Shown in pieces: positions 1 through 14,612 of a stretch of 60,083 nucleotides of DNA. The notes under the pieces are model-generated. The model did no database searches, was not told the origin of the DNA, and worked only from the letters and a program-made list of their open reading frames with translations. Made by a program: the position numbers and the translations under genes. The stretch comes from a virus. Taxonomy: Duplodnaviria; Caudoviricetes. Each line of letters opens with the position of its first letter. Position 1 is the stretch's first letter. Location: IMG/VR virus record IMGVR_UViG_3300004806_000027, positions 1 to 60,083 of that record. One strand, given 5' to 3'.

Positions 1-315
1 TGGCACAGCTACCACGTTAGTTGTTGGTGGTGTCACTTACTCAGCCGGTGGTGGCCTTAATAAAGCGCTTGTTTATCCAGGGGGCATGTCTGGTGGTGGC
101 GGTCCGGGCGGTATTTATTCTGGATCAACCACTTCTACTGACGGCGGTTATCCAGGTGGTGGTGGTGCTGGTCAACGCAACTCAGGTACAGTCTATCAAG
201 GCGGCTATGGTGCAGCCTCATTATTTTCAAGTTCATCTTTGGGGGGATCGGGCGCAGCTTCCGGCACGGCTGGTGGTGGTGGTGGTGGTGGGTACTTAGG
301 CAAAGGTGGCGATGG
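1..315 (+). repeat. Terminal overlap (circular assembly), copy 1; matches 59772-60083 except for a divergent central patch
   Basis: 1-~96 and ~207-315 are identical to the end of the window; the middle differs and is one codon longer (315 vs 312 nt). Confidence 0.95.
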
Positions 316-451
316 AGCCAACGCTACTGCCGCTGGTGCAGCGGGCGGTAATGCTTCTGGATATGGTGGTGGTGGCGGTGGTGCCGCTGCTGGTACAAGC
401 GCGCAATCAGGTGGTAACGCAACAGCGGGTTACGCGGCAATCTTTTGGTAA
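2..451 (+). CDS. C-terminal part of glycine-rich tail-associated protein (continues from 59383 across the circular junction)
   Basis: Frame is open from position 2 (GTATTLVVGG...); GGGGG-rich repeats end in GYAAIFW; same frame as the ORF running off the right end. Confidence 0.85.
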   Translation, partial: GTATTLVVGGVTYSAGGGLNKALVYPGGMSGGGGPGGIYSGSTTSTDGGYPGGGGAGQRNSGTVYQGGYGAASLFSSSSLGGSGAASGTAGGGGGGGYLGKGGDGANATAAGAAGGNASGYGGGGGGAAAGTSAQSGGNATAGYAAIFW

Positions 452-457
452 AAAATC

Positions 458-676
458 ATGTCACGGTATTGGAGTAATGGGGAAATGGACCATAAGACTG
501 AGCTGCACGGTGCGCTTGAGGCCGCGTTAGGATTCATTCTAATGACGTTGCCGACATGGCATGATTTTGTCGAAAGCACGTTGGGGGTTGCGCACGGAAT
601 TGGCGCCATTGGTGGCGCGATTATTGCGGTTCACGGGGTTTATCGTATTTGCGAAAAACGATGGATCAAAAAATGA
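458..676 (+). CDS. Putative holin / small membrane protein (alternative start 485)
   Basis: Two hydrophobic stretches and a basic C-terminus (EKRWIKK); stop overlaps the endolysin ATG. Confidence 0.6.
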   Translation: MSRYWSNGEMDHKTELHGALEAALGFILMTLPTWHDFVESTLGVAHGIGAIGGAIIAVHGVYRICEKRWIKK

Positions 677-1083
677 CCGCGCGCGGCATTCGATTAAACA
701 ATCCTGGCAATATCAAACTTTCCAAAACCATTTGGAAAGGGCAAGTGGTGCCGGGTTCCGACGATCAATTTTGCGAATTTGATACGCCGGAAGATGGTTT
801 GCGGGCGCTGATGATTACGTTGAAAAATTATCAAGTGCTGCACGGCATTAATACGATTTCTGGCGCAATTGATCGATGGGCGCCCCCATCGGAAAATGAC
901 ACTGAGGCATATAAAAGCGATGTGTGCAATTTGACCGGATGCGGACCGGATGAATATGTGAATTTGTCGTCTCAATTGGTTTTGATCCCGTTGACGCGCG
1001 CCATTGTCCATCACGAAAACGGGTCTGATCCATATACCGATAATCAGCTTGCTCAAGCGGCTGCGTCGGCTTTATCAGGGTAA
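673..1083 (+). CDS. Endolysin, lysozyme-like (NNPGNI family)
   Basis: RGIRLNNPGNIK, FDTPEDGLRAL, RWAPPSENDT and AIVHHENG motifs; lies between holin-like and spanin genes. Confidence 0.85.
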   Translation: MTARGIRLNNPGNIKLSKTIWKGQVVPGSDDQFCEFDTPEDGLRALMITLKNYQVLHGINTISGAIDRWAPPSENDTEAYKSDVCNLTGCGPDEYVNLSSQLVLIPLTRAIVHHENGSDPYTDNQLAQAAASALSG

Positions 1084-1087
1084 TGTT

Positions 1088-1315
1088 ATGAACACCAGTC
1101 AAAATACTTCCACGTCCGCTGTTGCCATGTCCACGGCTGGCGCTGGGCTTGTGTTGCAATGGGTCATTCATTGCCTGAGCGCCGGTCAATTGGTTGTGCC
1201 TGGCGATGAAGTGGCGCTGATTGTGGGGGCGTCTTTGGTGCCGTTGGTGGATGCCATCCGGCGCAAGTTAATCCGTGAAATTGATCCTCAATCCCTTCAA
1301 ACAAACGGGGTTTAA
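1088..1315 (+). CDS. Small two-TM membrane protein (holin/antiholin-like)
   Basis: Hydrophobic segments AGAGLVLQWVIHCL and VALIVGASLVPLV; inside the lysis cassette. Confidence 0.5.
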   Translation: MNTSQNTSTSAVAMSTAGAGLVLQWVIHCLSAGQLVVPGDEVALIVGASLVPLVDAIRRKLIREIDPQSLQTNGV

Positions 1316-1316
1316 T

Positions 1317-1628
1317 ATGTCTTGGTTTTCACAATGGTTTCACAAGGCTGTCGAGCCGTTTGTGACCGATGCTGTTTCTCAAATTGAACACGCCGAAGTG
1401 GCCACATTGATTCCGTTTGCGGAACAATTTGCCACTTCGGCCATTCAAGCGGTTGCCAGCAATCCGACTGATTTGCATGCTGCGGCTCAAGCCATTGGCG
1501 ATGCGGCGTCCAGCACGGCTAAAGCGGCGGTTGCGGCGGGTGTAAAGGCTGGGGCGGCGTCACTGGCGGTTGCTCTGTCAACGGCCATTGCTCAAGCCCA
1601 TGGCGCGCAACAAACGGCTGGTCAATGA
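1317..1628 (+). CDS. Ala-rich hypothetical protein of the lysis cassette
   Basis: ATG 2 nt after the previous stop; its stop overlaps the next start. Confidence 0.6.
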   Translation: MSWFSQWFHKAVEPFVTDAVSQIEHAEVATLIPFAEQFATSAIQAVASNPTDLHAAAQAIGDAASSTAKAAVAAGVKAGAASLAVALSTAIAQAHGAQQTAGQ

Positions 1629-1858
1629 TTGAAGCCCTTTTATCCCTTGTCTCGACCATCGTGTCGTCCATAGGGGCGAAGATTGTTGATATGGTTCGAG
1701 ACAAGGGATTAAGGGATCATGGCCGAATTGAACAACAAGCGGTTGATTTGCAATCCGCTGTTGCGGAGGATCGAAATGCTCAAATCATTCATGATGATGT
1801 GCGGCGCATGTCTGACGCTGATCTTGACAGCGAGTTGCGCGGAAAATCCGGCGCCTAA
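1625..1858 (+). CDS. Inner-membrane spanin (Rz-like)
   Basis: N-terminal hydrophobic anchor, then a coiled-coil-like periplasmic segment; overlapped by a lipoprotein ORF. Confidence 0.7.
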   Translation: MIEALLSLVSTIVSSIGAKIVDMVRDKGLRDHGRIEQQAVDLQSAVAEDRNAQIIHDDVRRMSDADLDSELRGKSGA

Positions 1859-1991
1859 TCCAACTGCGTGCGGGTGGCTTTCCGAAGTCCATCCTGATTC
1901 AGATTTTGAATCAAGATGGACGCGTTCGGAAAAGCAATGGGCGGTTATTCACAATCGTAATGTCGAAGCCAATTGCCGGACTAAAAATTGA
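1776..1991 (+). CDS. Outer-membrane spanin lipoprotein (Rz1-like)
   Basis: GGAGG RBS at 1765-1769; lipobox LTAS-C; Pro-rich linker; two further Cys; overlaps the i-spanin 3' end. Confidence 0.75.
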   Translation: MLKSFMMMCGACLTLILTASCAENPAPNPTACGWLSEVHPDSDFESRWTRSEKQWAVIHNRNVEANCRTKN

Positions 1992-2469
1992 CGTAATTTT
2001 CAACGTGGCTGGTTCTGGTGCCGTAAACCAAAGTGCCAGCCGTTGTGCTTTCCAGCGTTAGCGAAATGGATTTGCCGGTCAAAACGCAATTGGGCGCAAG
2101 ATAATTGGGCGATGACAGACCTTGACCGCCGATGCACTGAATTGTTGACGTTGACGTATAAACGTTAGGCGCCGTTTCGGTGTCAACCGGCTCTAGTCTG
2201 GCCAAATACCAATCTGCATTGCCGTTGCCGGTATCGCTCCATCCAAGGCCAGAAATCAGGATTGTGTGGCCATTGGTGGATTGTTGGATGGTCCAGCTTG
2301 TACCGCCTTCGCTGGGGTTCCAATACAGGCCGGAATTTGGCACCCATAAAGCCTGATTGCCGCCGTTACAGCGAAAATACCCGGCGAACATTTGACACGG
2401 CGTTCCTCCGGCCATGGCTGGGGGTGCAATAAACATTAGGGCCAATAAAGCTAATAGGGCGTTTTTCAT
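1981..2469 (-). CDS. Secreted beta-rich protein with four Cys (accessory/moron)
   Basis: Signal peptide MKNALLALLALMFIAPPAMA|; GGAG RBS upstream. Confidence 0.8.
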   Translation of the reverse strand: MKNALLALLALMFIAPPAMAGGTPCQMFAGYFRCNGGNQALWVPNSGLYWNPSEGGTSWTIQQSTNGHTILISGLGWSDTGNGNADWYLARLEPVDTETAPNVYTSTSTIQCIGGQGLSSPNYLAPNCVLTGKSISLTLESTTAGTLVYGTRTSHVENYVNF

Positions 2470-2524
2470 TGTCGTTACTCCAAGGGGTTAAAAGGCGTTT
2501 TTATTTACCTTGATGCCTTTTTAG

Positions 2525-3697
2525 CTATGCAACAAGTGATGACCGTACACTTTTAGACGATATGGCGGCGTCAATGGCGTTTTTAACCGCCGCAATGTCA
2601 ACAATCATGTCTTTTTCGGAACCGTGATCCGGGGTGATGATTCGCCCGTACCAATGGCCCAACCACTTGGCGACGTACCAGAACAAAGGGTGCTGGTAGG
2701 ATTCGGGGGCAATTTCAATCAAGGCGGTGCTGGGGCTGGCAAACAGCATATTCATTAATCCGGCGCCGTGTGGCGCCACAATGATTGATGCTGAATGAAA
2801 TAGCTTGGCCTGGTCGAGCACGCTTAAATTGCTCAACGTGACACGCTCAAAGCCCATGGGAGCCAGGGCGGTCATTATGTTTGATTCATTAGCAATACGG
2901 CGGCTGGTGGCGTCGTTTCTGGAAATCAGAATGCGCTTGTTGCCTGATGTAACTGGGGGATTTGAGAAATAAGGGATTTTGTCGCAAAGCCTTTGTTGAA
3001 ACAGCGCGCGGATTTGTTTGAACTGTTCCGCGCAAATCCCGTTATGGGCAAATTGGGAAATGACATATAATTCATCGTATTGAACGGCTTTTTGGGTTTG
3101 CGGAACGTATTTGATTGATAGCAAATCCGCAATCTCGCGCTGATATGGGGTTGTCGGGTTCCAGATTAGCTGCGGCAAATGATCGTCCCAATGTTCTGCT
3201 AAAAACAATTTTCCCACGGTTTCCATTAGGCAATGCGCATAATTCGTGTCCCATTGATGAGCCAATAATACGCTGGGGACGGATGACACCGACTCTGGCG
3301 CAATATCTTCCATGACATGCACGTCAAACGATCCGGCATTGGTGGGGATTCTCATGGTTTGACCGCAAAAACGGTTAAACCATTCGCCCGAATAATAGGT
3401 TTCTTCAATACAAACCCCTGGGCTGACGGCAACGTGCCAGCGGTCTTGACCAAAATTGACGCGCTGAACCATTGCGTTTTTTAATTTGACCACAAATGGG
3501 TCATCGGCCAAAAGGTAAGGGGTGCCGTCAATGGTTTTGTATCGCCATCCAAATTGATCGGGCTGACCATTGGCTTGAATGTTTTGACATTGGCCATGAA
3601 TGAAATTGGGCCACTCAATCGCGGATTGATATGGGAATCCGTCAAACAAAATTTGACCGGCTGCACGCGCTGGGATGTAGTTGAATGAGCGAATCAA
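2525..3697 (-). CDS. Glycosyltransferase family 61 (DUF563)
   Basis: NYAHCLMET, ISRNDATSRRIANE, LSVLDQAKLF and IIVAPHGAGLMNMLF motifs typical of GT61. Confidence 0.9.
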   Translation of the reverse strand: MIRSFNYIPARAAGQILFDGFPYQSAIEWPNFIHGQCQNIQANGQPDQFGWRYKTIDGTPYLLADDPFVVKLKNAMVQRVNFGQDRWHVAVSPGVCIEETYYSGEWFNRFCGQTMRIPTNAGSFDVHVMEDIAPESVSSVPSVLLAHQWDTNYAHCLMETVGKLFLAEHWDDHLPQLIWNPTTPYQREIADLLSIKYVPQTQKAVQYDELYVISQFAHNGICAEQFKQIRALFQQRLCDKIPYFSNPPVTSGNKRILISRNDATSRRIANESNIMTALAPMGFERVTLSNLSVLDQAKLFHSASIIVAPHGAGLMNMLFASPSTALIEIAPESYQHPLFWYVAKWLGHWYGRIITPDHGSEKDMIVDIAAVKNAIDAAISSKSVRSSLVA

Positions 3698-3708
3698 AGC
3701 GCGGGGCC

Positions 3709-3891
3709 TTATTGAGTGATGCGACTGACTTCAATGTCAGTGGCTTCAAGTTTTGGGTTATAGTGATTGGCGCGAGACAAAATTTCACCTGTCATCATTT
3801 GCACCCAATCTTCGGGCTGGTAGTAAGCACCCGGCACATCATCCAAATCAACGGATACCGTAATGGTGATTTTGGCGCGTCTGCGGATCAT
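3709..3891 (-). CDS. Small hypothetical protein (left cassette array)
   Basis: Bounded by AATAA(A)GGCCC junction motifs on both sides. Confidence 0.7.
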   Translation of the reverse strand: MIRRRAKITITVSVDLDDVPGAYYQPEDWVQMMTGEILSRANHYNPKLEATDIEVSRITQ

Positions 3892-3902
3892 GGTCTGGGC
3901 CT

Positions 3903-4154
3903 TTATTGTTTAGCTTTGAGGGTGGCGCGGATTGCGTCATTGTCGGCTTTTTGCTTGGTCAATGCGCTTTGCATTATCAAAGCGTTTGCCATTGCAGCCG
4001 CCGCCGTTGCCAGTGATGTAAACGCTTGGATCACGGAATGATCCGCATCGCCGCTTAGGTTAAGATTGGCTTTACCGCGCTCAATCAATGCGGCCTTGTT
4101 GTGCAGGTCTGCGGCAAGATCGGATGCTTGGTCAACTAAATCTGATAAGGTCAT
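3903..4154 (-). CDS. Small helical hypothetical protein (left array; start moved to 4154)
   Basis: ATG follows the junction motif AATAAAGGCCCCGACT. Confidence 0.7.
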   Translation of the reverse strand: MTLSDLVDQASDLAADLHNKAALIERGKANLNLSGDADHSVIQAFTSLATAAAAMANALIMQSALTKQKADNDAIRATLKAKQ

Positions 4155-4176
4155 AGTCGGGGCCTTTATTCTAGGG

Positions 4177-4695
4177 TTAAGCGTATTCGCCACGGCGTTC
4201 CCAAATGTCACGTTTTTGGGCTTCCAATTTATTAACCTGGGCAACAAGGCATTTCACCTGATTTTCCAAATCAAGAATGCGCTCATTTTTGATAAGATCG
4301 GCGTAAGCATCTGCGATTTTGCGCCGTAAATCTAAGCCGCCATATTCGGACAAGGTGCCGTTTATGACTTGGTGCCATTGATCGTCTGGACGCTTGGCAC
4401 CACATACATCGGCATCGCTTCGACCTGTCCAAGCGCCACGTTCGCAACCAAGATACCGGCGCATTTCGTTTTCATTGCCGCGCAATAAAGCGTCAATTGT
4501 TTTGTTTGCCATATCGGCCACATATTCGACCAAATTGTAAGCCAGATCATCTTTGACGCGGTATTCAAGATCATCTTCAATTTCTTGGATAATTTCTTTT
4601 GTCTTTTCTTTGACGGCTTTAAGCGCAGTCTCGCCTATTGCAGCATCAAGCGTTGCTTTTAGCTTTTCGCCAATGTCTTTGTGAATGTCGCGCAT
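4177..4695 (-). CDS. Coiled-coil hypothetical protein (left array)
   Basis: 172-aa ORF preceded by CAATAAAGGCCCGCTCC-ATG. Confidence 0.8.
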   Translation of the reverse strand: MRDIHKDIGEKLKATLDAAIGETALKAVKEKTKEIIQEIEDDLEYRVKDDLAYNLVEYVADMANKTIDALLRGNENEMRRYLGCERGAWTGRSDADVCGAKRPDDQWHQVINGTLSEYGGLDLRRKIADAYADLIKNERILDLENQVKCLVAQVNKLEAQKRDIWERRGEYA

Positions 4696-4706
4696 GGAGC
4701 GGGCCT

Positions 4707-4970
4707 TTATTGCTTGAGTTCGCTGACGGTGACAAAAGGTTTGCCAATCCGAATTGCGTCACGTATCAACCGGCCATACTGGTCTTTGGTTTCAATGCGT
4801 TCACGCGGCTTGGCTTCCCAACACTTAATCCTCAAATAAGTTCCATCGGTAAATTGGATTGTGTGCAGTCGCATATCCTTAACCAAAGATGCGGGCACAA
4901 TTTCCCGATGATGCACCTTTTGTTGGGCGCTTACGTATCCGCTCCATTCACCCTCAAGAACATAACGCAT
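4707..4970 (-). CDS. Hypothetical protein (left array)
   Basis: 87-aa ORF between junction motifs. Confidence 0.75.
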   Translation of the reverse strand: MRYVLEGEWSGYVSAQQKVHHREIVPASLVKDMRLHTIQFTDGTYLRIKCWEAKPRERIETKDQYGRLIRDAIRIGKPFVTVSELKQ

Positions 4971-4984
4971 TAGTCGGGCCTTTC

Positions 4985-5203
4985 TTATTCAGCCATTTGG
5001 GCTTGATATTTCATATCTGCTTTTTCCATGTCCGTATAAATGCGCGGGGCATCGTTAGACAGGGTATTAAAAAACTCGATTACCGCTTCGTCTGACCAAT
5101 GAGCGGGGATTTCACCGCCAAGGCTTTTGACGCAGCCGCGAATAAATTCGGCGTGTTCCTGGTCGTTTCCGTCAAAAATTGAAATATTCTTTTCGATGGT
5201 CAT
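4985..5203 (-). CDS. Hypothetical protein (first gene of left array)
   Basis: GGAGA RBS; directly downstream of the leftward promoter. Confidence 0.75.
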   Translation of the reverse strand: MTIEKNISIFDGNDQEHAEFIRGCVKSLGGEIPAHWSDEAVIEFFNTLSNDAPRIYTDMEKADMKYQAQMAE

Positions 5204-5229
5204 TGTCGTGTCTCCGTGTTGGTGTCCCC

Positions 5230-5327
5230 ATTATACACGGATCAAATTAGACTGCAATAGCCATTCGCTAATTCCAGTGTAAAAATCATACGCTATTTGT
5301 TGACTATCTGGCCGTTTCATGTAAAAT
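5230..5327. promoter_or_regulatory. Divergent sigma70-like promoters driving the left array and the recombinase/right array
   Basis: Minus strand TTGCAG(5257-5252)-16-TATAAT(5235-5230); plus strand TTGACT(5300-5305)-16-TAAAAT(5322-5327), 6 nt before ATG 5334 (possibly leaderless). Confidence 0.65.
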
Positions 5328-5333
5328 GTGGTC

Positions 5334-5954
5334 ATGGTTTTGAAACGACGCACAAAATTGCCAGACCTGCCCGCGACCCGATTAATCGGGTATGCCCGCG
5401 TGTTCACAGAAGATCAGAAACTTGACCTTCAAGTGGACGCGCTTAAGCGTGCCGGGGTGTTGCCCGACAATCTCCACATCGAAAAAAAATCGGCGGCGTC
5501 TAAGTCCAGACCGGCACTTGAACACGCCATGAAAGATTTGCGCGAGGGCGATACCCTTGTGGTCTGGCGTCTAGATCGGCTGGCCCGCAATATGCGTGAA
5601 CTATACGCACGGCTAGACCAGATTTCCGATGCGGGCGCGTCTTTTAAATCCCTGACAGAGCAATTCGATTTCAGCACAGCAACCGGCAAGCTAATCCTTG
5701 GCCTATTCGCCATTGTCGCGGAATTTGAACGCCAGCTAACCATTGAACGGACTAAAGCCGGTATTCAGGCGTTTAAAGAACGTGAGGGCGGCTGGCAAGG
5801 TGCGCCCAAGAAACTAACCGCTGAAAAGCTGAAACAGATTAAAGCCCTCCGCAAGGAAGGGCTGACGATCAAGCAAATCGCGGCCAAGCTGAAAGTCAGC
5901 GAAAGCATTATTTACACACGATTGCGCGATTGCAAAAAGCGCAAAGCAAATTAG
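5334..5954 (+). CDS. Small serine recombinase (resolvase/invertase) with C-terminal HTH; catalytic Ser replaced by Phe
   Basis: GYARV-F-TEDQ, GDTLVVWRLDRLARN and AEFERQLTIERTKAG motifs; TTC at 5403-5405 where the family has Ser. Confidence 0.92.
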   Translation: MVLKRRTKLPDLPATRLIGYARVFTEDQKLDLQVDALKRAGVLPDNLHIEKKSAASKSRPALEHAMKDLREGDTLVVWRLDRLARNMRELYARLDQISDAGASFKSLTEQFDFSTATGKLILGLFAIVAEFERQLTIERTKAGIQAFKEREGGWQGAPKKLTAEKLKQIKALRKEGLTIKQIAAKLKVSESIIYTRLRDCKKRKAN

Positions 5955-5963
5955 GAGCCGGTA

Positions 5964-6161
5964 ATGGACGAGCTTGATGAATATCTTATCAAAGAAATCC
6001 TCGAAGTTCCCCAATCTTGGGGGAAAGGCGGTCGAGTGCATAATTGGCGCAATCACGTTGGTTACAAAACAAGAGAAATATGGGACACTTTCACCGAGGC
6101 GCAGAAATTGGCGATTGGCGTAGATGCGGTTGACCGCGCTAATAATGAAAATTGGGAATAA
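5964..6161 (+). CDS. Small hypothetical protein (right array)
   Basis: RBS; ORF contains RVHNWRNHV; flanked by junction motifs. Confidence 0.75.
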   Translation: MDELDEYLIKEILEVPQSWGKGGRVHNWRNHVGYKTREIWDTFTEAQKLAIGVDAVDRANNENWE

Positions 6162-6171
6162 AGGAGCGACC

Positions 6172-6348
6172 ATGAACCCGTCTAAAAAGCGCATCAAAGA
6201 AATAATGGATGAGGTCGAAACGCTTGACCTGTCAGATGGAGCACATTGGGCACTTGTCCATGAAAAGCTAGATTTGAAATATGGAAAAGTATTTGACTTA
6301 ATTTCAGACGATCCAGAATATTTTGGGTTTAAACAAACTGCACAATAG
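6172..6348 (+). CDS. Small acidic hypothetical protein (right array)
   Basis: AAGGAGCGACC-ATG at 6172. Confidence 0.75.
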   Translation: MNPSKKRIKEIMDEVETLDLSDGAHWALVHEKLDLKYGKVFDLISDDPEYFGFKQTAQ

Positions 6349-6358
6349 GAGCATCGAA

Positions 6359-6526
6359 TTGACTGATTTCTGTCTTGGTCAATCTCAAGTCATTCAGAGC
6401 CGGATGACCGCTGATGACGCCCATAGGGGACATTTCCGACAGAATACGACTGTGCTGCGCGGGGGTACGGTAAGAGATAATCCAGCTACCGGATGGTGGA
6501 CTGCGATAGCCCGCGCCAATTATTAA
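6359..6526 (+). CDS. Doubtful 55-aa ORF (right array; TTG start)
   Basis: Fills the unit between two junction motifs, but its composition is atypical. Confidence 0.35.
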   Translation: MTDFCLGQSQVIQSRMTADDAHRGHFRQNTTVLRGGTVRDNPATGWWTAIARANY

Positions 6527-6533
6527 GGAGCCG

Positions 6534-6746
6534 ATGATGTGGATTAAACTTTTAACTTATCTATGCCCCCAAGGGTTTGTCATTGTTCCCAAAGAACCAA
6601 CTGACAAACAAATATCGGCTGGGTTACAAGCTGCGTTAGAACTCATGGATCAAAACAAAATAGACGCATTGTCGCCGTTCGAAGATTACCCGCCGCCTAA
6701 ACAAACAACTGCCATTTGCTATACGGCAATGATCAAAGCGGCATAA
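6534..6746 (+). CDS. Small phage protein with VPKEPT...YxAMIKAA motif (right array)
   Basis: Motif common in small phage early proteins; flanked by junctions. Confidence 0.75.
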   Translation: MMWIKLLTYLCPQGFVIVPKEPTDKQISAGLQAALELMDQNKIDALSPFEDYPPPKQTTAICYTAMIKAA

Positions 6747-6761
6747 AAGGAGCGAGTCGCC

Positions 6762-6944
6762 GTGAAAAATTTTCGATATTCTTTGACGCGACATATAATC
6801 CATTTTGGTTTGTGGGTTATGCCTCGCGGACGCGCTAGAGATGAAGTCATTTCATTGCTTTGGCGATGGCATTATCATGTGGTCAATGAAGTTATTAAAG
6901 CCGATATGGAAAAAATATCCGGCGTGACCAGTTACATGAAATAA
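6762..6944 (+). CDS. Small hypothetical protein (right array)
   Basis: GTG start after AAGGAGC; stop sits in the next junction. Confidence 0.65.
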   Translation: MKNFRYSLTRHIIHFGLWVMPRGRARDEVISLLWRWHYHVVNEVIKADMEKISGVTSYMK

Positions 6945-6953
6945 GGAGCTGCT

Positions 6954-7025
6954 ATGACCCATCCGTACTGCACCACGAAAGACATGGGACAAGCGTGTGC
7001 AGGCGATTTGTCCATTTATTATTAA
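6954..7025 (+). CDS. 23-aa mini-ORF MTHPYCTTKDMGQACAGDLSIYY (not in ORF track)
   Basis: TAAGGAGCTGCT-ATG; its TAA forms the next TAAGGAGC junction. Confidence 0.55.
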   Translation: MTHPYCTTKDMGQACAGDLSIYY

Positions 7026-7035
7026 GGAGCGACCG

Positions 7036-7251
7036 ATGATTGCGATTTGGATAGAAAATAATGGTATCGCTCATTCTGGTTCTGTGACTGGTGAAGATTA
7101 TACGCTTTGTGGGTTTTCGCTTGATGGCGAAGAAGGTAATGATTTCTTTGTCAAATCTGAGCGCGGCAAAGTCACTTGTAAATCTTGTATCCAAATAATT
7201 GATTTTTGTAAAACCATTCCAGCGCGCAAATTAGCGCGAGAAGCAAAATAG
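7036..7251 (+). CDS. Small His/Cys (Zn-finger-like) protein (right array)
   Basis: H..TLCG...VTCKSC pattern; start after the junction at 7026. Confidence 0.75.
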   Translation: MIAIWIENNGIAHSGSVTGEDYTLCGFSLDGEEGNDFFVKSERGKVTCKSCIQIIDFCKTIPARKLAREAK

Positions 7252-7259
7252 GAGCCGGG

Positions 7260-7298
7260 ATGACCCATATAATGTTCAATAAACCCAATAATGAATAA
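7260..7298 (+). CDS. 12-aa mini-ORF MTHIMFNKPNNE (terminal unit of right array)
   Basis: TAGGAGCCGGG-ATG; same ATGACCCAT start as the 6954 mini-ORF. Confidence 0.3.
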   Translation: MTHIMFNKPNNE

Positions 7299-7375
7299 TA
7301 TATGGGGCAAAACCAGAACACCCCTGACAAATGATGTGTCCGATTCTGTGTCAGCCTAAACCGATATTGTTCGCG

Positions 7376-7744
7376 CTAGGCCGGAGTCACAATTGGCTTG
7401 CCATTAGGCTTTGCGGCTTCAATTGCTTGATAGATAGCCCTTAAAGCTAAATCGGTGGGCGCCGAAAACCACTCGCCTCGAACGTGATAGCCCTGGGATT
7501 TTAAAGTTACCATGGCTTCATATTCTATCCCGATCACTTCTTCGGCGGGCACTTCAAAATACCGGATTAAACGTAATTTGGCGGGTGTGGCATTTTGCAA
7601 AGCCAAAAATCTGGCTTGAACATTTTTCGTTCTGCCAATTTTTAAATGTTGCCCGCTGCGGACCAAATAAACAAAACTGGTTTTGGTTGAATTTTCCAGT
7701 TTTGATGTTTGTGGCGCCAAATTGACTGAAACATCTCCTGCCAT
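7376..7744 (-). CDS. GIY-YIG-like nuclease (T5orf172/MUG113 type)
   Basis: FVYLVR..LKIGRT..RFLALQ..GEWF motifs. Confidence 0.85.
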   Translation of the reverse strand: MAGDVSVNLAPQTSKLENSTKTSFVYLVRSGQHLKIGRTKNVQARFLALQNATPAKLRLIRYFEVPAEEVIGIEYEAMVTLKSQGYHVRGEWFSAPTDLALRAIYQAIEAAKPNGKPIVTPA

Positions 7745-7860
7745 TTTATCACTTTTCCATCAAACTGCCGTTACACTTAGCCCGTAAGTCATTGATATAT
7801 CATACATGAACAGACGCAGAACAAGTGTAAAAAATGGCGGATTTGCTAGGGGTGCATGAT

Positions 7861-7906
7861 ACTTTTAATCAAAGGGTCATGGGTTCGAATCCCATCGCGC
7901 TCACCA
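7861..7906 (+). other. attP core = 3' half of tRNA-Lys(TTT) (anticodon loop to CCA)
   Basis: ACTTTTAATCAAAGGGTCATGGGTTCGAATCCCATCGCGCTCACCA: CTTTTAA anticodon loop, T-arm GGTTCGAATCC and CCA end; no 5' half upstream. Confidence 0.9.
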
Positions 7907-7910
7907 AGAT

Positions 7911-7949
7911 TTTTCAAGGGGTTAGGGAAAATCCTTAGCCCCTGAAAAA
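7911..7949. terminator. Hairpin after the att core (replacement tRNA terminator / int terminator)
   Basis: TTTTCAAGGGGTTAGGGA-AAA-TCCTTAGCCCCTGAAAA imperfect inverted repeat. Confidence 0.6.
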
Positions 7950-7983
7950 CCCCCAAAGTGTAACGAAAATTACACCTGATCCT

Positions 7984-9036
7984 TTACCTGTTCGCCCTCC
8001 GTTTCGCTTGAGCGCCTTCGGCACCGGCTGACGATACCACCACATAAGTCGCCGCCTGATTCCGGGTTTTCCAGCCTTGGAGCGCCCGTAACTGATCATC
8101 TGTTGCCCCGGCATTGCCAATTTCCGTGGCGGCTGTCCGGCGCAGATCGCGGAATTGAAGCTGTTCCGGCAGTTTGGCCGCGCGCCTGATCTTGGTGCAT
8201 AGGTGCCGGAAATAATCAGCCTTATAGGGGGCTTTGGTCCCCTCACAAATCAAGACATGCGAGTGTTTGCGCGGCATGGCGTCGATTTCAGCCCAAAGAA
8301 ACGGGTTTTCGAACGGCGCATTGACGCGGGTTTTGGTCTTGGACTGCTTAATCATAAACCCGGACCCGGTGTAAGTGGTCCAAGTCAGCTTGATATAGTC
8401 GCCAGGGCGTTGCCCAAGGTCATAGGCCAATAGCATCGCCAGACGCATGGACGGCCTGCCCATTTCCACGGCGGCATCACAAAATGCAAGGATTTGATCG
8501 ACCGTCCAGACTTGCTCTCGCGGCGGCGGCGTTTGAAGCCCAAGCCCGGCGGCGGGGTTATCTTTGCGCCATCCGAGGTCATAGGCGTGCTTAAGCAATA
8601 TCTGCCAGACCTTCATATACGCATTGGCGGTATAAAGGCCCCTGGCGGCGATTAGCTTCTCATAGGTCTGCAACATGCCGGGCCGGTCAATGGTCGCCAC
8701 AATGACATGCCCGGCAAGCGCGCGGATGTGTTTTAGGAAATGGTCATAGCCCTTTCGGGTGGTTTCCGCCCGGCTCTTATACCGGGGGCAGGACTGATAG
8801 GCGTCGATCAGGGCTGCCACCGTGTCGCCGCGCTTGGTCCTGGCATCCAACCCTAGTTTGGCCCGCTCGACCTGTTCATTAAGCTCCCTGGCCCTTGCAG
8901 CGGCTTTCATGGGGTCTTTGCCCAAAGCCTCGTAAGAAAACCCCAAAGCACGGATAGGGGCCGTGGGGCGCCAATAAAAGCGGTCCCCGACGATATGGAG
9001 CCGTGGCACGCTGAGGCTCAAGCGGATTTGTCCCAA
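7984..9036 (-). CDS. int: Tyrosine integrase
   Basis: LGQRPGD (Arg I), QSKTK, FRDLRRTAAT, GWKT..ATYV catalytic boxes; next to att core. Confidence 0.93.
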   Translation of the reverse strand: MGQIRLSLSVPRLHIVGDRFYWRPTAPIRALGFSYEALGKDPMKAAARARELNEQVERAKLGLDARTKRGDTVAALIDAYQSCPRYKSRAETTRKGYDHFLKHIRALAGHVIVATIDRPGMLQTYEKLIAARGLYTANAYMKVWQILLKHAYDLGWRKDNPAAGLGLQTPPPREQVWTVDQILAFCDAAVEMGRPSMRLAMLLAYDLGQRPGDYIKLTWTTYTGSGFMIKQSKTKTRVNAPFENPFLWAEIDAMPRKHSHVLICEGTKAPYKADYFRHLCTKIRRAAKLPEQLQFRDLRRTAATEIGNAGATDDQLRALQGWKTRNQAATYVVVSSAGAEGAQAKRRANR

Positions 9037-9335
9037 TTTATGTCCCCGAGGCCCGAAGGTTGATCAGGAAGAGTATCAGATACAATGCCCTTTAGCCGGT
9101 CAACTGCCCTATCAAGGTCGCCCAAATCCCAAAATATGCGCCGTCCGCGCCGGATTGGCGGGGGCCAAATGCCTTGTTCGACCTCCGTTCGGAAAGTACC
9201 GATCGAGACACCGCCGACATAGGCAGCCGCCAAAAGTTCTGGTAGCAATCGCGGCCAATTTGGCAGCCGTGCCCAAGGCCGATGAATTTCAATTTCATCT
9301 TGCCTGTTGGCTGGGATTGGGCGCGGGAAGTTCAT
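9018..9335 (-). CDS. xis: Excisionase / AlpA-like recombination directionality factor
   Basis: RLL..LAAAYVG.VS..TF....G.WPPPIRRGRRIFWD pattern; directly upstream of int. Confidence 0.75.
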   Translation of the reverse strand: MNFPRPIPANRQDEIEIHRPWARLPNWPRLLPELLAAAYVGGVSIGTFRTEVEQGIWPPPIRRGRRIFWDLGDLDRAVDRLKGIVSDTLPDQPSGLGDINWDKSA

Positions 9336-9377
9336 GGGTTATCCGGCCTGACGGGATAGGAAGCGGGGGGTCATGGG

Positions 9378-9566
9378 TTATTTAATTGCCAGCGTTTGGC
9401 GCTCGATGATGCGAGCCAAAAATCCAATTGAGGCAATAATTGTTGAAATCCCGTCTGCAATAAGTTCGGCCTCAGATGCAGGTGTAAAATTCCATCCAAA
9501 GTAAGCTGTTTCGACAGTGCAATAAAAAATCGCCAAAACAAAAATCCATGTTGATATTGGCATCAT
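9378..9566 (-). CDS. Small two-TM membrane protein
   Basis: ETAYFGWNFTPASEAELIADG loop between hydrophobic helices. Confidence 0.7.
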   Translation of the reverse strand: MMPISTWIFVLAIFYCTVETAYFGWNFTPASEAELIADGISTIIASIGFLARIIERQTLAIK

Positions 9567-9763
9567 TCCCTCCCATCATGCGACAAACCCCATTGAACCA
9601 GTCGCCAACCCCCGCCTATAACCGATAAAACAAAAAATGCTTTAGGCACAAAACTTTCAGCGCCAAATATCATCATTGTGCAAAAGAAAATTCCAAACCA
9701 AATTAAAAAACATCCGACAATAATTGCCGTTTTTGCATCTGCTTTTTCCATCATTCCCTCCAT
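9563..9763 (-). CDS. Small two-TM membrane protein
   Basis: Two hydrophobic segments; ATGA overlap with the next gene. Confidence 0.6.
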   Translation of the reverse strand: MEGMMEKADAKTAIIVGCFLIWFGIFFCTMMIFGAESFVPKAFFVLSVIGGGWRLVQWGLSHDGRE

Positions 9764-9779
9764 TCAATCGCCTGGATGC

Positions 9780-10142
9780 CTATAAGCTTCTGCGAAATAG
9801 CTTGTCGTTGTAGCCGATCTTGGCCGATGTGCGATTGAATTTATCAATCACAGCCACTTCCAAATTGATCCCGGCGCTTTGAGCGAGCAAATCGAGATAA
9901 ATAAACGTATCTGCAATTTCATCCGCCAAAGCTGCTTGCAATTGTTCCGGCGTTTCGCTGTTGCCGGGAATTCCATCGCGCACACGATTCAGCTTTTTTG
10001 CGACATTGGCAGCTTCGCCAAGTTCACCAACAACCGCAGTAAACCAGTCCGAAAGGGTCCATCTCGAAAGGGCGTGGTTGAAACCATTGGCCGCTTCGCA
10101 ACGGCGGCGGTTGAAAACACTGAAATCTTGAAAGTCCATCAT
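9780..10142 (-). CDS. MazG-like nucleotide pyrophosphohydrolase
   Basis: GELGEAANVAKK...LADEIAD...DKFN all-alpha NTP-PPase signature; AAGGAG RBS. Confidence 0.88.
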   Translation of the reverse strand: MMDFQDFSVFNRRRCEAANGFNHALSRWTLSDWFTAVVGELGEAANVAKKLNRVRDGIPGNSETPEQLQAALADEIADTFIYLDLLAQSAGINLEVAVIDKFNRTSAKIGYNDKLFRRSL

Positions 10143-10273
10143 TGTCTCCTTTTGTTAATCGCCGGGGTGCATAGGGCCACCGCCCCGGCTCGGTGCTGGA
10201 AGCGCCGACGGTTCGCCGCCCTATGCGTTGGTGGTTTCGGGGTTAAGGGCGGCATCGACGCGAGTGGCCTTTC

Positions 10274-10465
10274 TTATCGATTAATTCCAATTGAGATTTG
10301 AACAATCAGCCCATCAAGGACGCCAATTAACGCTTTAAGGTCTTTTTGGGCCGCGTGACCCATGCTACCGGCCAAAGCGTGATTTACGACCAACAATTGA
10401 TGCAGCGCGGCTAGGTCGAGTGGCGTCACGTTAATTGTGATCGTGTGAGTGTCCAAGGCATTCAT
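10274..10465 (-). CDS. Hypothetical protein
   Basis: Preceded by GAATAGAGGCCCCAACC-ATG (left-type junction motif). Confidence 0.65.
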   Translation of the reverse strand: MNALDTHTITINVTPLDLAALHQLLVVNHALAGSMGHAAQKDLKALIGVLDGLIVQISIGINR

Positions 10466-10476
10466 GGTTGGGGCCT

Positions 10477-10845
10477 CTATTCCATAATTTCGACAAGGAA
10501 ATCGCGCTCAATTTGCGCGGTCAGTTTTGCAACCGTTTCGGCGGGAACCTGATGATCGGCCCCCAAGCCGTTATGGACTGCACCAATGGCGAACCTTACG
10601 GCCCGCTCAACCTTATCGCGTTCTTGGGCATAGGTTTTCTTGGTGACTTCCGGGTGTCCAGCGATCATTGGGCGGGCCTTTTTTGAGTGCAGCGCGTCGG
10701 CTGCAAAGTTTTGAAGAACACTGGTATCTGAACCACTTTTGGCGGCGTCAATAATCAAACGCAAAGCCGCCTCAAGCTCCCTAATGCGGGCAGATTGCCT
10801 TATGTTGTCAGTCAATATTTGACGCATTGGGTTTTTGTCATCCAT
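10477..10845 (-). CDS. Hypothetical protein, apparent fusion of two small ORFs
   Basis: Internal degenerate junction CAAAAAAGGCCCGCCCA-ATG at about 10685-10666. Confidence 0.65.
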   Translation of the reverse strand: MDDKNPMRQILTDNIRQSARIRELEAALRLIIDAAKSGSDTSVLQNFAADALHSKKARPMIAGHPEVTKKTYAQERDKVERAVRFAIGAVHNGLGADHQVPAETVAKLTAQIERDFLVEIME

Positions 10846-10848
10846 CGG

Positions 10849-11217
10849 TCAGTCCTCAATTGGTGGGGTTGGTAGGGGCATCCAGTGGGTGGGCATAAAT
10901 TCAACCGGGTCGTGAGTATTGATCCACCACCATTCCATTTGACCATCATTTGATCTTGCAAAAATTGCTTCTCCGACTTTGTTGTTCTTTGTTGCCAAAA
11001 TTACAGATTGATATTTTGGCGCATTTTCAATCGGTCGCCATTTCCGCTCAGCTTCCAACTCCGCCACCTTCTTACGTAGTGCATCTATTTCATCGCAGAG
11101 GGCGGGTATGTGCTCGTAGGCAATTTCAGCAGCAAGAAATATATTACCTGGAAACCAATCATTTGGCTTTATACCATGCAGCAATGCGCGGATTTGTGTT
11201 GTGTCTAGGGTTATCAC
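10849..11217 (-). CDS. DUF551-like protein
   Basis: WRPIENAPK...PTHWMPLPTPP. Confidence 0.85.
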   Translation of the reverse strand: MITLDTTQIRALLHGIKPNDWFPGNIFLAAEIAYEHIPALCDEIDALRKKVAELEAERKWRPIENAPKYQSVILATKNNKVGEAIFARSNDGQMEWWWINTHDPVEFMPTHWMPLPTPPIED

Positions 11218-11585
11218 TGTCTCTCCTGTTTCATCTTATGTGGTGATCTGCGCCATAGATCGGCGGCAATGGTGTGGGGGTCTAACCGATACTTAGCCGC
11301 GAATGTCTTTGCCCCGATCCGATGGCTTTCCGCGTGATGCCCGTTAGGTCCACCACATAGCGGCCACGTCCAGTTGTCGCCATTTTTAAGCCCCATACCG
11401 CCCCGATCAGCCAATGGCACGTCATAGTCAACGTGAGCACATTCTATCGGTGTATTGACGCATCCTGGTGCAGCACAGACGTGACCGCGCACCCATTGAC
11501 GGTGTGATGCGTTACGGATCGGCCCGTCATTGTCTCGAATACCTGAGCGGGTGTGTTTGCGGCGTTGGAGCATGGCAGACCTCAA
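11214..11585 (-). CDS. HNH-like (DUF968/HNHc) nuclease
   Basis: HRQWVR..C...GC...ECAHV...GMGLK..D..TWPLC...HH..SH. Confidence 0.8.
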   Translation of the reverse strand: MRSAMLQRRKHTRSGIRDNDGPIRNASHRQWVRGHVCAAPGCVNTPIECAHVDYDVPLADRGGMGLKNGDNWTWPLCGGPNGHHAESHRIGAKTFAAKYRLDPHTIAADLWRRSPHKMKQERQ

Positions 11586-12043
11586 AATGGGATTTCATCA
11601 TCCATATCGCTGTTTTGTGGCGCACGATATGATGAGGCTGGGCGTTCGTCCTGATTGTAATCATCCTCGCCTGGTTCTCGATTTGATGCTCTAGCACCAT
11701 CCAGCATGGTCAATTCGCCTTTAAACCGTGCCAAAACGATCTCGGTTGAATATCGTTCAGTGCCGCCTTGATCGACCCATTTGCGGGTCTGCAATTGGCC
11801 TTCAAGATAGACTTTCGCGCCTTTCTTGAGGTATTGCTGCGCGACCTTGCCCAAGGCATCGTTAAAAATTACAACACGATGCCACTCGGTTTTCTCGCGG
11901 CGTTCACCTGAATTTTTATCCCGCCATGATTCCGATGTGGCAACCCGCAAGTTTACAATCAAGTCACCTGATTGCGTGTGGCGGCATTCGGGGTCTGCGC
12001 CCAAATGACCAAGGATGATGCATTTATTGACTGATCCGGCCAT
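11582..12043 (-). CDS. ssb: Single-stranded DNA-binding protein
   Basis: MAGSVNK..LG.LGADPE, TEWHRV and C-terminal DDEIPF. Confidence 0.97.
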   Translation of the reverse strand: MAGSVNKCIILGHLGADPECRHTQSGDLIVNLRVATSESWRDKNSGERREKTEWHRVVIFNDALGKVAQQYLKKGAKVYLEGQLQTRKWVDQGGTERYSTEIVLARFKGELTMLDGARASNREPGEDDYNQDERPASSYRAPQNSDMDDEIPF

Positions 12044-12987
12044 TATGCGGCCTCCCCTAAACCGTCATCTTTCGGTTCGGTTGGCTCTGGTTCATTTTCA
12101 GCGTGTAGCGCGTCAACGGTTTGCGCCACAATTTTGAGCCGGTCTTTTTCATCGGCCAAAAGCCGCTGGTGTTCTTTGGGGGTATGTTTCCAGCAATCCG
12201 CAAAGGCAATTAAACCTTGCTGGGCGGCTTCAATCATTAAAGCCTTGGACCGTTCAAGGGCGGTATCGACTGCCTGTCCAGTGGATACCCATTCTTTAAT
12301 GATCCGTCCTGTATCAACGGTGATTAGATCGCCGTCTTTTAAAACGCCGGTTAAGGGCTTTGGTAGGTTTTTCAGCTTGGAATAATATGCTTTGTTGGTC
12401 TGGTAATCACAAAGGCAAGCAAGGGTCATTTCATAAATGAAACGGGATTCCTGTTCGCAAATCATTTCGCCCTTAATGAACGTGTCTTTGCCTTGGGCGT
12501 TTTTGACCGTTAGCAATTCTGGCTTTGCGCGAAGGGTAAAAATGACCGGCACTTGACAACGGAGAATGCGATTCATCATTCGAGCGTGGTTGCGCTTTGG
12601 TTTAATCCATGCTTGGGGGCCGGGCTTTGCCATTTCCTCGGCTTGCTCGATACATCCGCCTGTGCCGGACCACTCCATGGTCATACTGTCGATCACAATG
12701 CAGTCAGCTCCGGCATTTTCAGCGGCGTCGATGGCGTCAATAAATGATGCACTGGTAAACGGCGGATACATATCTCCCACGATAAACCCGCCAATTGTCG
12801 GATCATCGGCATACATTTGGCTTCGACCGTTCTCGGTGTCCAAGACAATAATCTTGCCTTTGGGTCCGGCAATGCCTCGCGCCATTAAAAGAGCACCATA
12901 AGTTTTTCCGCTGCCTGATGGTCCACCAATGGCAATGAGCGGGCGGGTGGCTTTGCGGATCGCTTGGGTAAATTTCATCACGGTCAT
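12043..12987 (-). CDS. Sak4-like AAA ATPase (recombinase)
   Basis: GPSGSGKT Walker A, LDTENG and VIDS; between exonuclease and SSB; ATGA overlap at 12987. Confidence 0.85.
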   Translation of the reverse strand: MTVMKFTQAIRKATRPLIAIGGPSGSGKTYGALLMARGIAGPKGKIIVLDTENGRSQMYADDPTIGGFIVGDMYPPFTSASFIDAIDAAENAGADCIVIDSMTMEWSGTGGCIEQAEEMAKPGPQAWIKPKRNHARMMNRILRCQVPVIFTLRAKPELLTVKNAQGKDTFIKGEMICEQESRFIYEMTLACLCDYQTNKAYYSKLKNLPKPLTGVLKDGDLITVDTGRIIKEWVSTGQAVDTALERSKALMIEAAQQGLIAFADCWKHTPKEHQRLLADEKDRLKIVAQTVDALHAENEPEPTEPKDDGLGEAA

Positions 12988-14093: not shown

Positions 14094-14188
14094 TTCTTTG
14101 CTCCCATAATGGCTGCGCAAATCAGCCGGGTTTCTAGGGGTAAGTCAGCAAGCGTTGGACGCTTGAACCAATTAAAAATCAGTTTCAT
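14090..14188 (-). CDS. 32-aa ORF MKLIFNWFKRPTLADLPLETRLICAAIMGAKK (not in track)
   Basis: ATGA overlaps at both ends with neighbouring genes. Confidence 0.55.
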   Translation of the reverse strand: MKLIFNWFKRPTLADLPLETRLICAAIMGAKK

Positions 14189-14466
14189 AGCGTCACCAAG
14201 ACGATGGTTGCGGCGCATGCGATAAAACCAACAAAAAAAGTTAAAACCGAAAATGCCAGTAAAAAATCGTTGGTCACGTCTTTGACAACCACACGGCTTT
14301 TAAAGGGAATATCGAACGTCTTTTTTTCATCGACATATTCGCGCAACAATTGAACGGTTAAATCCCGTTGCGCGCGGCGTTCGAGTTCGGCGTTTATAAA
14401 ATTTATTGATTTGCGGCGTGTATGTGGGCGCACAATAACGCGCGGCTGATCGGGTGTGGCAATCAT
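14185..14466 (-). CDS. Hypothetical protein with C-terminal TM
   Basis: Hydrophobic C-terminus; coupled overlaps with neighbours. Confidence 0.65.
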   Translation of the reverse strand: MIATPDQPRVIVRPHTRRKSINFINAELERRAQRDLTVQLLREYVDEKKTFDIPFKSRVVVKDVTNDFLLAFSVLTFFVGFIACAATIVLVTL

Positions 14467-14612
14467 TGTTCACCTGCCATTTGGCGTTCGGCCAAATCAA
14501 TATTGCACACGTCGCAAATAAACGGCGCGCGGTCGCCAAGCCAAAAGCCTGACTCGGTGTCTTGTTTTCCAATCCGCTCGTCGCATATTTCGCAAAGGTG
14601 TTCGATTTCCAT
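14463..14612 (-). CDS. 49-aa zinc-finger protein (CEIC...CDVC; not in track)
   Basis: Hand translation MEIEHLCEICDERIG...FICDVCNIDLAERQMAGEQ; GGAG upstream; ATGA overlap. Confidence 0.7.
   Translation of the reverse strand: MEIEHLCEICDERIGKQDTESGFWLGDRAPFICDVCNIDLAERQMAGEQ

Follow-up and report, generated by a model that had tools for sequence, protein, structure and literature searches.

Two divergent arrays of single-gene cassettes around an invertase homologue in an uncultured temperate phage, and the possible role of their junctions in cassette exchange

Introduction

How do two divergent arrays of small, mutually unrelated genes come to lie on either side of one serine recombinase gene, with a different short motif at the gene junctions of each array? 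The question is raised by positions 2,525 to 7,298 of virus record IMGVR_UViG_3300004806_000027 (Duplodnaviria; Caudoviricetes), which was analyzed as one window of 60,083 bases that is the whole virus record. In this region, a gene for a Hin/Gin-family invertase homologue is flanked by a leftward arm (genes L1 to L6) and a rightward arm (genes R1 to R8). A sequence-only reading of the window had proposed that the genes were integron-like cassettes, which were acquired or shuffled at their junctions by the recombinase or by Sak4/RecE microhomology recombination.

Here, we compare the window with other invertase-bearing loci and propose, with a probability of roughly 0.55, that the arms are arrays of accessory-gene cassettes and that their translational-coupling junctions double as sites of short-homology exchange, much like the promoter early stem-loops (PeSLs) of phage T4 and unlike integrons.

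Results

Junction motifs in the two arms

We recounted the motifs at the gene junctions, and the counts agreed with those of the sequence-only reading. All five left junctions carried (C/G)AATAA, 0 to 3 nt, and GGCCC, followed 5 to 6 nt later by a start codon, and the TAA was the functional stop at four of them (stop+GGCCC). At the L3>L4 junction, the motif was present, but the true L3 stop was located 12 nt upstream of the motif TAA. In the right arm, stop+GGAGC was found at 8 of 8 junctions, with GGAGC starting at positions 5954, 6163, 6348, 6527, 6749, 6945, 7026, and 7251. The same reading had named motif frequency as a check on its proposal, and the motifs did prove to be concentrated in the arrays: each one directly followed only 1 of 93 other predicted genes (counts anchored on stop codons). 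When up to one mismatch was allowed, AATAARGGCCC matched the window nine times, compared to 2.83 ± 1.49 matches in shuffled sequences, and none of 100 shuffles reached nine. Five of the nine matches were the five left junctions. A sixth left-type junction belonged to the leftward early operon and not to the arrays (Table 1).

A further copy of the left junction, AAAAAAGGCCCGCCCA-ATG, was seen in frame and without a stop at 10666-10684 (minus strand), inside a 122-amino-acid (aa) gene (10477-10845). It may represent either a fused junction or a start site within the gene.

Junctions in the window were 7 to 15 nt long, intergenic spacers were 5 to 15 nt long, and 6 to 11 nt were constant within one array. 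All of the cassettes in one arm were co-oriented and tightly spaced. The junctions were asymmetric, were in direct orientation within an arm, and held neither a promoter nor a terminator. No convincing attC-like or hix/gix-like inverted repeats were found at the junctions (window positions 1-9500). The R0>R1 (5939-5961) and R7>R8 (7236-7258) junctions shared 20 of 23 nt, upstream of the core, and the R7>R8 junction (7245-7268) resembled R5>R6 (6939-6962) downstream; R6 and R8 both began with ATGACCCAT. R8, with its 12 aa, may be what is left of a lost cassette. In line with the sequence-only reading, the array proteins were mutually unrelated, since an all-against-all blastp comparison yielded only one 17-residue match (R0 versus R1, E ~1e-3).

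The architecture recurs in related loci

We compared 312 related loci, which are invertase-bearing stretches labeled L001 and so on. The clade was set by identity to the window invertase and not by a tree. The most similar invertases (~47 to 62% identity) were all found in uncultured viral or metagenome contigs, and the architecture of the window was repeated in these loci. Divergent promoters and an invertase gene lay between two arms, of which the left had stop+(G)GCC junctions and the right had stop+GGAG junctions. Left junctions in the relatives consisted of an A-rich last codon, TAG or TAA, (G)GCC(C/G), 0 to 9 nt, and a start codon. Runs of left-type junctions included about nine consecutive copies in L005, seven in L002, and five in L150. 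The right junctions of the relatives read (A)AA-TAG-GAG(C). This type was found at 9 of 11 right junctions in L001 and at 6 of 6 in L150, and the stop was fused directly to GGAG at 8 of the 12 junctions in the L003 right arm, with a few bases in between at two more. TAG was the commonest stop codon (45/73 left junctions and 64/85 right junctions). Some of the flanking genes were in the same places as well. Specifically, genes for a virion protein and an endolysin were located upstream of the left arm in L235, in synteny with the window, and a tRNA-Lys-like fragment and an integrase gene followed the right arm in L150, as they do in the window. The L002 left arm ended in a gene that was read by eye as glycosyltransferase-like and had no Pfam match.

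A census of the sense strand supported the difference between the arms. In the 30 loci with invertase identities of 50% or more, which include two pairs of identical loci, the left arm contained 91 stop+GCC and 15 stop+GGAG sequences (77.6 kb), and the right arm contained 107 stop+GGAG and 23 stop+GCC sequences (66.8 kb). The arm-specific excess was weaker in the 53 loci with 45 to 50% identity and was gone in the 155 loci with less than 45% identity, where we counted 165 GCC-type and 57 GGAG-type sequences on the left (364.9 kb) and 109 GCC-type and 101 GGAG-type sequences on the right (305.7 kb). Counts were low in the antisense control (17 loci), where the left side yielded 25 GCC-type and 5 GGAG-type sequences, and the right side yielded 18 and 3, respectively.

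The searches aimed at nearer relatives gave little. At the nucleotide level, the region had no match among deposited phages, and the best invertase match among deposited phages had 45.6% identity. IMG/VR protein searches with L3, R1, and the GT61-family glycosyltransferase (L6) found no relatives, and a terminase search found no close phage; its best match was 63% identical and on short contigs. In 301 genomes of the order assigned to a metagenome-assembled genome (MAG) that carries the phage contig (see below), no invertase was more than 47% identical, except in the MAG itself. None of the window array proteins matched any of the 312 loci.

Homology starts and stops at junctions

Cassettes varied among relatives sharing the platform, as they do among integrons; the cassette content was almost wholly different, and very few cassettes were shared. 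In six cases, all of them in relatives, homology started or stopped at junctions. In the right arm of L003, a 514-bp segment occurred twice (10829-11342 and 13512-14025), 2.7 kb apart, and the two copies were 99.8% identical. This segment was exactly one cassette, encoding a 164-aa Dam-like N6-adenine methyltransferase (PF05869), and the identity ran from the AGGAG of the upstream junction to the TGAGGAGC of the next. L002 and L235, which have invertase genes that are ~71% identical in DNA, had one 235-bp left-arm cassette in common that was 97% identical. The identity ran from the junction (TAG, ..GCCAATG) to the cassette's own TAG, and the neighboring cassettes were unlike. The L235 copy was the last cassette before a terminator-like hairpin, and the shared L002 cassette, used as a query, retrieved no loci beyond these two. 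In L234 and L246, a block with 88% identity began at the first left-arm gene, at its start codon, spanned the promoters and the invertase gene, and ended at TAGGGAGC; outside this block, the two loci were unrelated. The remaining cases were repeats that began or ended at junctions in L231 (252 bp, 90%), L007 (98 bp, 99%), and L265 (96 bp, 100%).

In addition, a homologous gene in L003 and L229 lost its similarity right after an AAGG(G)CCCG junction. Some junction repeats reached into the last codons of otherwise unrelated cassettes: a 25-nt repeat was present twice in L150, TTGAAGGA(A/T)TAG recurred in L002, and GAGTTGGCAAAATAG occurred twice in L230.

The proposal that cassettes are gained or shuffled at stop and ribosome-site junctions, and the variable gene content with breakpoints at the motifs that the sequence-only reading expected of relatives, were supported in the related loci. 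In the window itself, cassette movement could not be seen for want of a close relative. The same reading had suggested a search for excised circles or reordered units. None was present in the contigs of four other runs (X7 to X10), which drop rare forms; these contigs showed one C>T change only, and no joints, indels, or reordered units.

Two other candidates were set aside. A homologous segment on opposite sides of the invertase in L001 and L228 turned out to be a flanking gene in convergent orientation, not a cassette, and a small membrane-protein cassette common to L001, L002, L228, and L235 was too diverged for breakpoint mapping.

The central invertase homologue

The protein encoded between the arms matched the Hin/Gin family of invertases in its Resolvase domain (PF00239, E 6e-38) and its C-terminal helix-turn-helix domain (PF02796, HTH_7, E 1.9e-5), which are the two domains of the Hin/Gin switch proteins, as well as phrog_125 (E 3e-57). 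It also matched the Gin structure (E 4e-34; structures 4m6f and 3uj3), with ~45% identity to Gin over 177 to 180 aligned residues. The catalytic serine of the Hin/Gin switches (Ser9/Ser10) was absent from the window copy and present in relatives from the clade. Specifically, the window protein reads YARVFT around the nucleophile position, compared to VRVST in Gin and ARVST in gamma-delta resolvase, and a Phe codon (TTC, 5403-5405) replaces that of the catalytic Ser. This serine was found in 160 of the 161 loci aligned over the residue, and the window copy was the sole Phe. The TTC codon was identical in contigs of two other runs, and the remaining conserved residues of the catalytic domain were intact. 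The catalytic serine is indispensable in this enzyme family. Because the nucleophile Ser is replaced by Phe, the window invertase should not recombine DNA.

We searched window positions 1-9500 and the surroundings of the invertase in L001, L002, L003, and L150 for inverted crossover sites or an invertible segment, and no convincing ones were found. Catalysis by the neighboring serine recombinase, one of the two routes suggested by the sequence-only reading, was not supported, given this replacement and the junctions themselves, which are short, asymmetric, and directly oriented and in which no hix/gix-like or attC-like repeats were found. The constant central position of the invertase gene and the arm-specific junction difference keep a catalytic or regulatory role alive, with a small probability.

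Promoters and translation signals

The divergent promoters of the sequence-only reading were recovered in part. The rightward site was the sole promoter-like site in 1800-8000 that matched 10 of 12 positions; four 9/12 matches were located inside the invertase gene and the right arm. The leftward site was read from the sequence, was absent from the promoter-scan list, and matched only 3 of 6 positions in its -35 hexamer. With these predicted promoters, the promoterless cassettes of an arm would be read in one orientation from a common platform promoter, which is a feature of integrons. The invertase ATG (5334) is 7 nt past the end of the rightward -10 hexamer (5327), and no Shine-Dalgarno sequence precedes it. 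Because the ATG is so close to the -10 hexamer, the invertase mRNA may be leaderless. In the relatives, the platform contained a TTGACA-N3-4-TGTCAA palindrome of back-to-back -35 boxes, which could double as an operator. The intergenic promoter regions of L234 and L246 (~9880-9990) were nearly identical and contained TTGAGTCAAAAAGGTCAACAGGAATTGTCAA.

The two types of junction also differed in predicted ribosome binding. Using an anti-Shine-Dalgarno string that was not taken from the host, we obtained predicted pairing energies of -7.9, -3.6, -4.7, -3.6, and -2.7 kcal/mol for the left junctions (median, -3.6 kcal/mol) and, with the same string, -6.5 to -8.5 kcal/mol for the right junctions. The left values fit the earlier remark that GGCCC is a poor Shine-Dalgarno sequence. 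Because the pairing at the left junctions is weak, we infer that termination-reinitiation may be used in left-arm translation.

Gene content of the arms and the phage genome

The features of the region are listed in Table 1. Most of the array proteins had no family, and R1, R4, and R7 were the exceptions. L3 is a real gene family because it had 19 homologues (45 to 57% identity) among metagenome proteins; a protein atlas gave no usable lead for L3 (top score, 0.79). PADLOC returned 0 families for 10 of the 13 array proteins. The G+C content of the right-arm cassettes was 38 to 52%, compared to 51% for the genome.

Table 1. Coordinates of the genes, promoter-like sites, and other features in the window
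Feature	Position	Strand	Details
L6, GT61-family glycosyltransferase, last left-arm gene	2525-3697	-	PF04577, E 7e-25; preceded by CAATAAGGCCCCGCGCT-TTG
L5 cassette	3709-3891	-	60 aa; junction CAATAAAGGCCCAGACC-ATG; no family match
L4 cassette	3903-4154	-	83 aa; junction GAATAAAGGCCCCGACT-ATG
L3 cassette	4177-4695	-	172 aa
L2 cassette	4707-4970	-	87 aa; junction GAATAAGAAAGGCCCGACTA-ATG
L1, first left-arm gene	4985-5203	-	72 aa; ordinary GGAG ribosome site
Leftward promoter-like site	5230-5257	-	TTGCAG (5257-5252), 16-nt spacer, TATAAT (5235-5230); read from sequence
Rightward promoter-like site	5300-5327	+	TTGACT, 16-nt spacer, TAAAAT; scan, 10/12 positions
Invertase homologue	5334-5954	+	Resolvase domain and HTH_7
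R1	5964-6161	+	65 aa; phrog_9546 (annotated RecX-like), E 7e-13
R2	6172-6348	+	58 aa
R3	6359-6526	+	55 aa; TTG start; coding doubtful
R4	6534-6746	+	70 aa; phrog_5913 match
R5	6762-6944	+	60 aa
R6	6954-7025	+	23 aa
R7	7036-7251	+	71 aa; phrog_15583 match
R8	7260-7298	+	12 aa
tRNA-Lys(UUU) 3' part, anticodon loop to CCA	~7837-7906 (~7862-7906)		adjoins integrase gene
Tyrosine integrase	7984-9036		phrog_1; beyond attP, in operon separate from the arrays
Sixth left-type junction	10465-10481 (motif match 10471-10481)	-	AATAGAGGCCCCAACC-ATG; leftward early operon, outside the arrays
CI-like repressor	16239-16901		HTH_3 and Peptidase_S24

The window phage encodes a Cro-like protein in addition to the CI-like repressor. 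Its recombination genes encode an AAA_24 (Sak4-type) protein, a PD-(D/E)XK nuclease, and a single-stranded DNA-binding protein (SSB). The tRNA-Lys(UUU) fragment beside the integrase gene is likely the attP core; a complete tRNA gene was not detected anywhere in the window. Both cassette arms have the end of the late genes on one side and attP on the other, which is the usual location of accessory genes in other temperate phages, and the two-arm region is best read as the accessory-gene module of a temperate phage.

The window sequence was present in freshwater metagenome runs. A MAG labeled Beijerinckiaceae contained an identical contig (100% over the region) and was the sole 100% terminase match. 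Binning is no proof of a host, and the MAG may not be the true one because 4 of ~46 aligned positions differ between the attP fragment and the MAG tRNA-Lys. The copy of the contig in the MAG was 369 bases shorter than the record. The ends of the record (1-315 and 59772-60083) were direct repeats with 91% identity (316 nt), located in a Gly-rich, repeat-rich gene.

Several other features were observed near the arms or elsewhere in the window. A small protein with a GIY-YIG-like T5orf172/MUG113 domain (PF10544, E 1e-6; PF13455, E 1.5e-8) is encoded at 7376-7744 (minus strand), between the right arm and attP and convergent with the right-arm end; it had no homologue in the related loci. The protein of an early-operon gene at 11214-11585 (minus strand) showed a weak HNHc_6 match (E 6e-4), and it had a homologue of 34% identity among the left-arm cassettes of L228 and another, of 38% identity, in L003. 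Genes may thus move between the arms and other operons. Over window positions 1-18000, all Rfam matches were below threshold. The tRNA-Lys stretch read weakly as tmRNA ends (14.8 bits, below threshold), and a sub-threshold SorX small RNA match (30.4 bits against a gathering score of 46.6, E 7e-4) was found at 17933-17987 (plus strand), directly downstream of the immunity region.

Discussion

The reading that we favor can be set out as follows. A platform composed of back-to-back sigma-70-type promoters and the invertase gene would drive two divergent polycistronic arms. Each cassette would be a unit that starts with a short leader, continues with an ORF (open reading frame), and closes with a stop codon that runs directly into the ribosome-binding context of the cassette after it. 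In the left arm, the junction consists of an A-rich last codon, TAA or TAG, and (A)GGCC(C), a weak Shine-Dalgarno sequence at which termination-reinitiation is probable. In the right arm, TAA or TAG is fused to GGAG(C), which is predicted to be a good Shine-Dalgarno sequence. Short-homology recombination would then duplicate, delete, and exchange cassettes in register. These events would occur at the junction because it is the only sequence common to otherwise unrelated cassettes. The likely agents are the AAA_24 (Sak4-type), PD-(D/E)XK, and SSB proteins of the phage, or host RecA, and the invertase would be excluded as an agent. The Sak4/RecE route of the sequence-only reading is compatible with this gene set, whose products are candidate agents. 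The cassettes may serve in lysogenic conversion, host takeover, or anti-defense.

Several points weigh against this reading. Breakpoints were mapped only in relatives with invertases that are 47 to 62% identical to that of the window, and no close relative of the window phage was found in the collections searched. There was no sign of ongoing shuffling in this population, as judged from contigs, which drop rare variants. The junctions of the relatives were collected by regular expressions, which partly fixed the bases after the stop by construction; stop-codon usage, the A-rich last codon, and the asymmetry between strands and sides lie outside that constraint. Homologies of 8 to 25 nt are short for known recombinases, and translational coupling alone does not explain the clade-wide difference between GCC on the left and GGAG on the right. 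Finally, random breaks combined with selection for intact, expressed genes could also leave breakpoints in spacers of 5 to 15 nt.

The last point leads to an explanation in which the junctions are expression signals only, illegitimate recombination occurs anywhere, and selection retains whole coupled genes. The junctions combine a stop codon with a Shine-Dalgarno-like purine tract at constant spacing to the start, the spacers are so short that every break between genes lands in them, and the region was stable across the four other runs. We consider this explanation unlikely, however, given that some of the junction repeats run 12 to 25 nt into the C-terminal codons of unrelated cassettes and that the L003 copy starts and stops within the GGAG cores themselves. 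It also leaves aside the arm-specific motifs conserved across the clade and the motif that was kept where its stop is non-functional, namely at L3>L4 in the window and in L235. Still less probable is an explanation in which the motifs mark each operon for selective control, either by a DNA-binding protein that blocks elongation or, with one type of ribosome site as the target, by an RNA-binding protein or an endoribonuclease. The stoperators of L5-type mycobacteriophages are oriented sites of the former kind, and T4 RegB acts on GGAG. The asymmetry of the motifs, their orientation with transcription, their arm specificity, and their conservation in relatives would suit such a marker, as would a left motif that is longer than a Shine-Dalgarno sequence needs to be. 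Yet the register of the motifs is tied to stop and start codons, only 6 to 11 nt are constant within one array, no candidate binding protein was identified, and the breakpoints at the junctions are left unexplained.

The invertase gene was central between the arms in every clade member seen and was conserved amid variable surroundings, and single cassettes moved as units bounded by junction cores. These observations could be accommodated by a serine-recombinase counterpart of the integron, in which the invertase clade excises and inserts single-gene cassettes at a minimal TAGG-type core that lies within the stop/ribosome-site junction. A compatibility code that separates the arms would then be provided by the two bases that follow this core (AG for the right arm, CC for the left), and the window copy would be recently inactivated and frozen. 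Both parts of this proposal seem very improbable to us. The junctions lack the dyad-symmetric half-sites of ~12 bp that are typical of resolvase and invertase sites and are directly oriented within an arm, the searches above found no inverted repeats on either side of the invertase or of the arms, the window arrays are well formed despite the Phe at the nucleophile position, and a left-type junction is also present in an operon far from the invertase. An explanation of the junction resemblance by shared ancestry of one conserved operon, with fast-evolving ORFs and no cassette mobility, has the conserved synteny of the module in its favor but is disfavored and has the lowest probability of all. 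It is at odds with the 97% identical cassette in two phages with ~71% identical invertase genes, with the 99.8% identical copy at a different array position in one L003 genome, and with arm lengths and cassette numbers that vary widely.

Comparison with known systems

An integron comprises an IntI-type tyrosine recombinase, attC hairpin sites, an attI site, and promoterless cassettes. The likeness proposed by the sequence-only reading holds for the layout of the locus, which has a conserved recombinase-bearing platform, a common promoter, a divergent one-orientation array of promoterless cassettes, and variable cassette content, but not for the defining parts. No IntI-type tyrosine recombinase is located beside the array, where the adjoining enzyme is a serine invertase that appears to be dead in the window, and there are two arms, no attI site, and no attC inverted repeats at the 3' ends of the cassettes. 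The Hin, Gin, Cin, and Min switches are similar in that their invertases are of the same protein family, with a Resolvase domain and HTH_7. They differ in that no inverted crossover sites (~26 bp) or invertible segment were found in the portions searched here, the catalytic Ser is replaced in the window, and the window gene is not beside tail-fiber gene ends. The L5 stoperators and T4 RegB resemble the present system in their asymmetric short junction motifs oriented with transcription and, for T4, in a ribosome-site sequence that marks a class of genes; they differ in being unlinked to cassette exchange, and no binding protein or nuclease was identified here.

Relaxed homologous recombination by phage recombinases is a source of mosaicism in temperate phages, according to the cited sections of De Paepe et al. 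(2014, PMC3945230). The present loci share with that process, as it is described there, the exchange between diverged phages at short identity, and the window phage has recombination genes of its own. The mosaicism in those sections is genome wide, whereas here a repeated arm-specific junction motif yields single-gene cassettes. The matches listed in literature searches on gene-boundary mosaicism and on relaxed recombination supplied general background only, and nothing comparable was among the matches listed for integron-like serine-recombinase cassettes in prophages.

By analogy, the closest described mechanism appears to be PeSL-mediated modular shuffling. In the hyperplastic regions of T4-type phages, modules are shuffled by homologous recombination between motif copies, as stated in the cited sections of Arbiol et al. 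(2010, PMC2839356) and Comeau et al. (2014, PMC4122927). Both systems, so far as those sections describe PeSLs, have short conserved regulatory motifs repeated between small, non-essential, mostly unknown accessory ORFs, and in both, the ends of insertions, deletions, and replacements between relatives fall within the motifs. In the same sections, a PeSL is an early sigma-70 promoter with a stem-loop terminator, and each unit is its own transcription unit, whereas the junctions analyzed here are 7 to 25 nt of stop and ribosome-site sequence within one polycistronic operon. There is physical evidence for PeSL mini-circles in those reports; for the window, the contigs of the four other runs, which drop rare forms, showed neither circles nor joints. 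The phages also differ, in that those described here are temperate and uncultured, and their invertase gene has an arm on each side, each with its own motif. The two-armed system is known so far only from uncultured contigs.

The platform, with its invertase clade, back-to-back promoters, and two junction motifs, is recognizable and lets small unknown phage genes be harvested from metagenomes as candidates for lysogenic conversion, host takeover, or anti-defense. The conserved difference between the junctions of the two arms poses a testable question on the specificity of phage translation or recombination. If our reading is correct, a translation-coupling junction would double as a linker, single accessory genes would be swapped in register and expressed at once, and the two arms would be a temperate-phage counterpart of the PeSL mechanism of T4.

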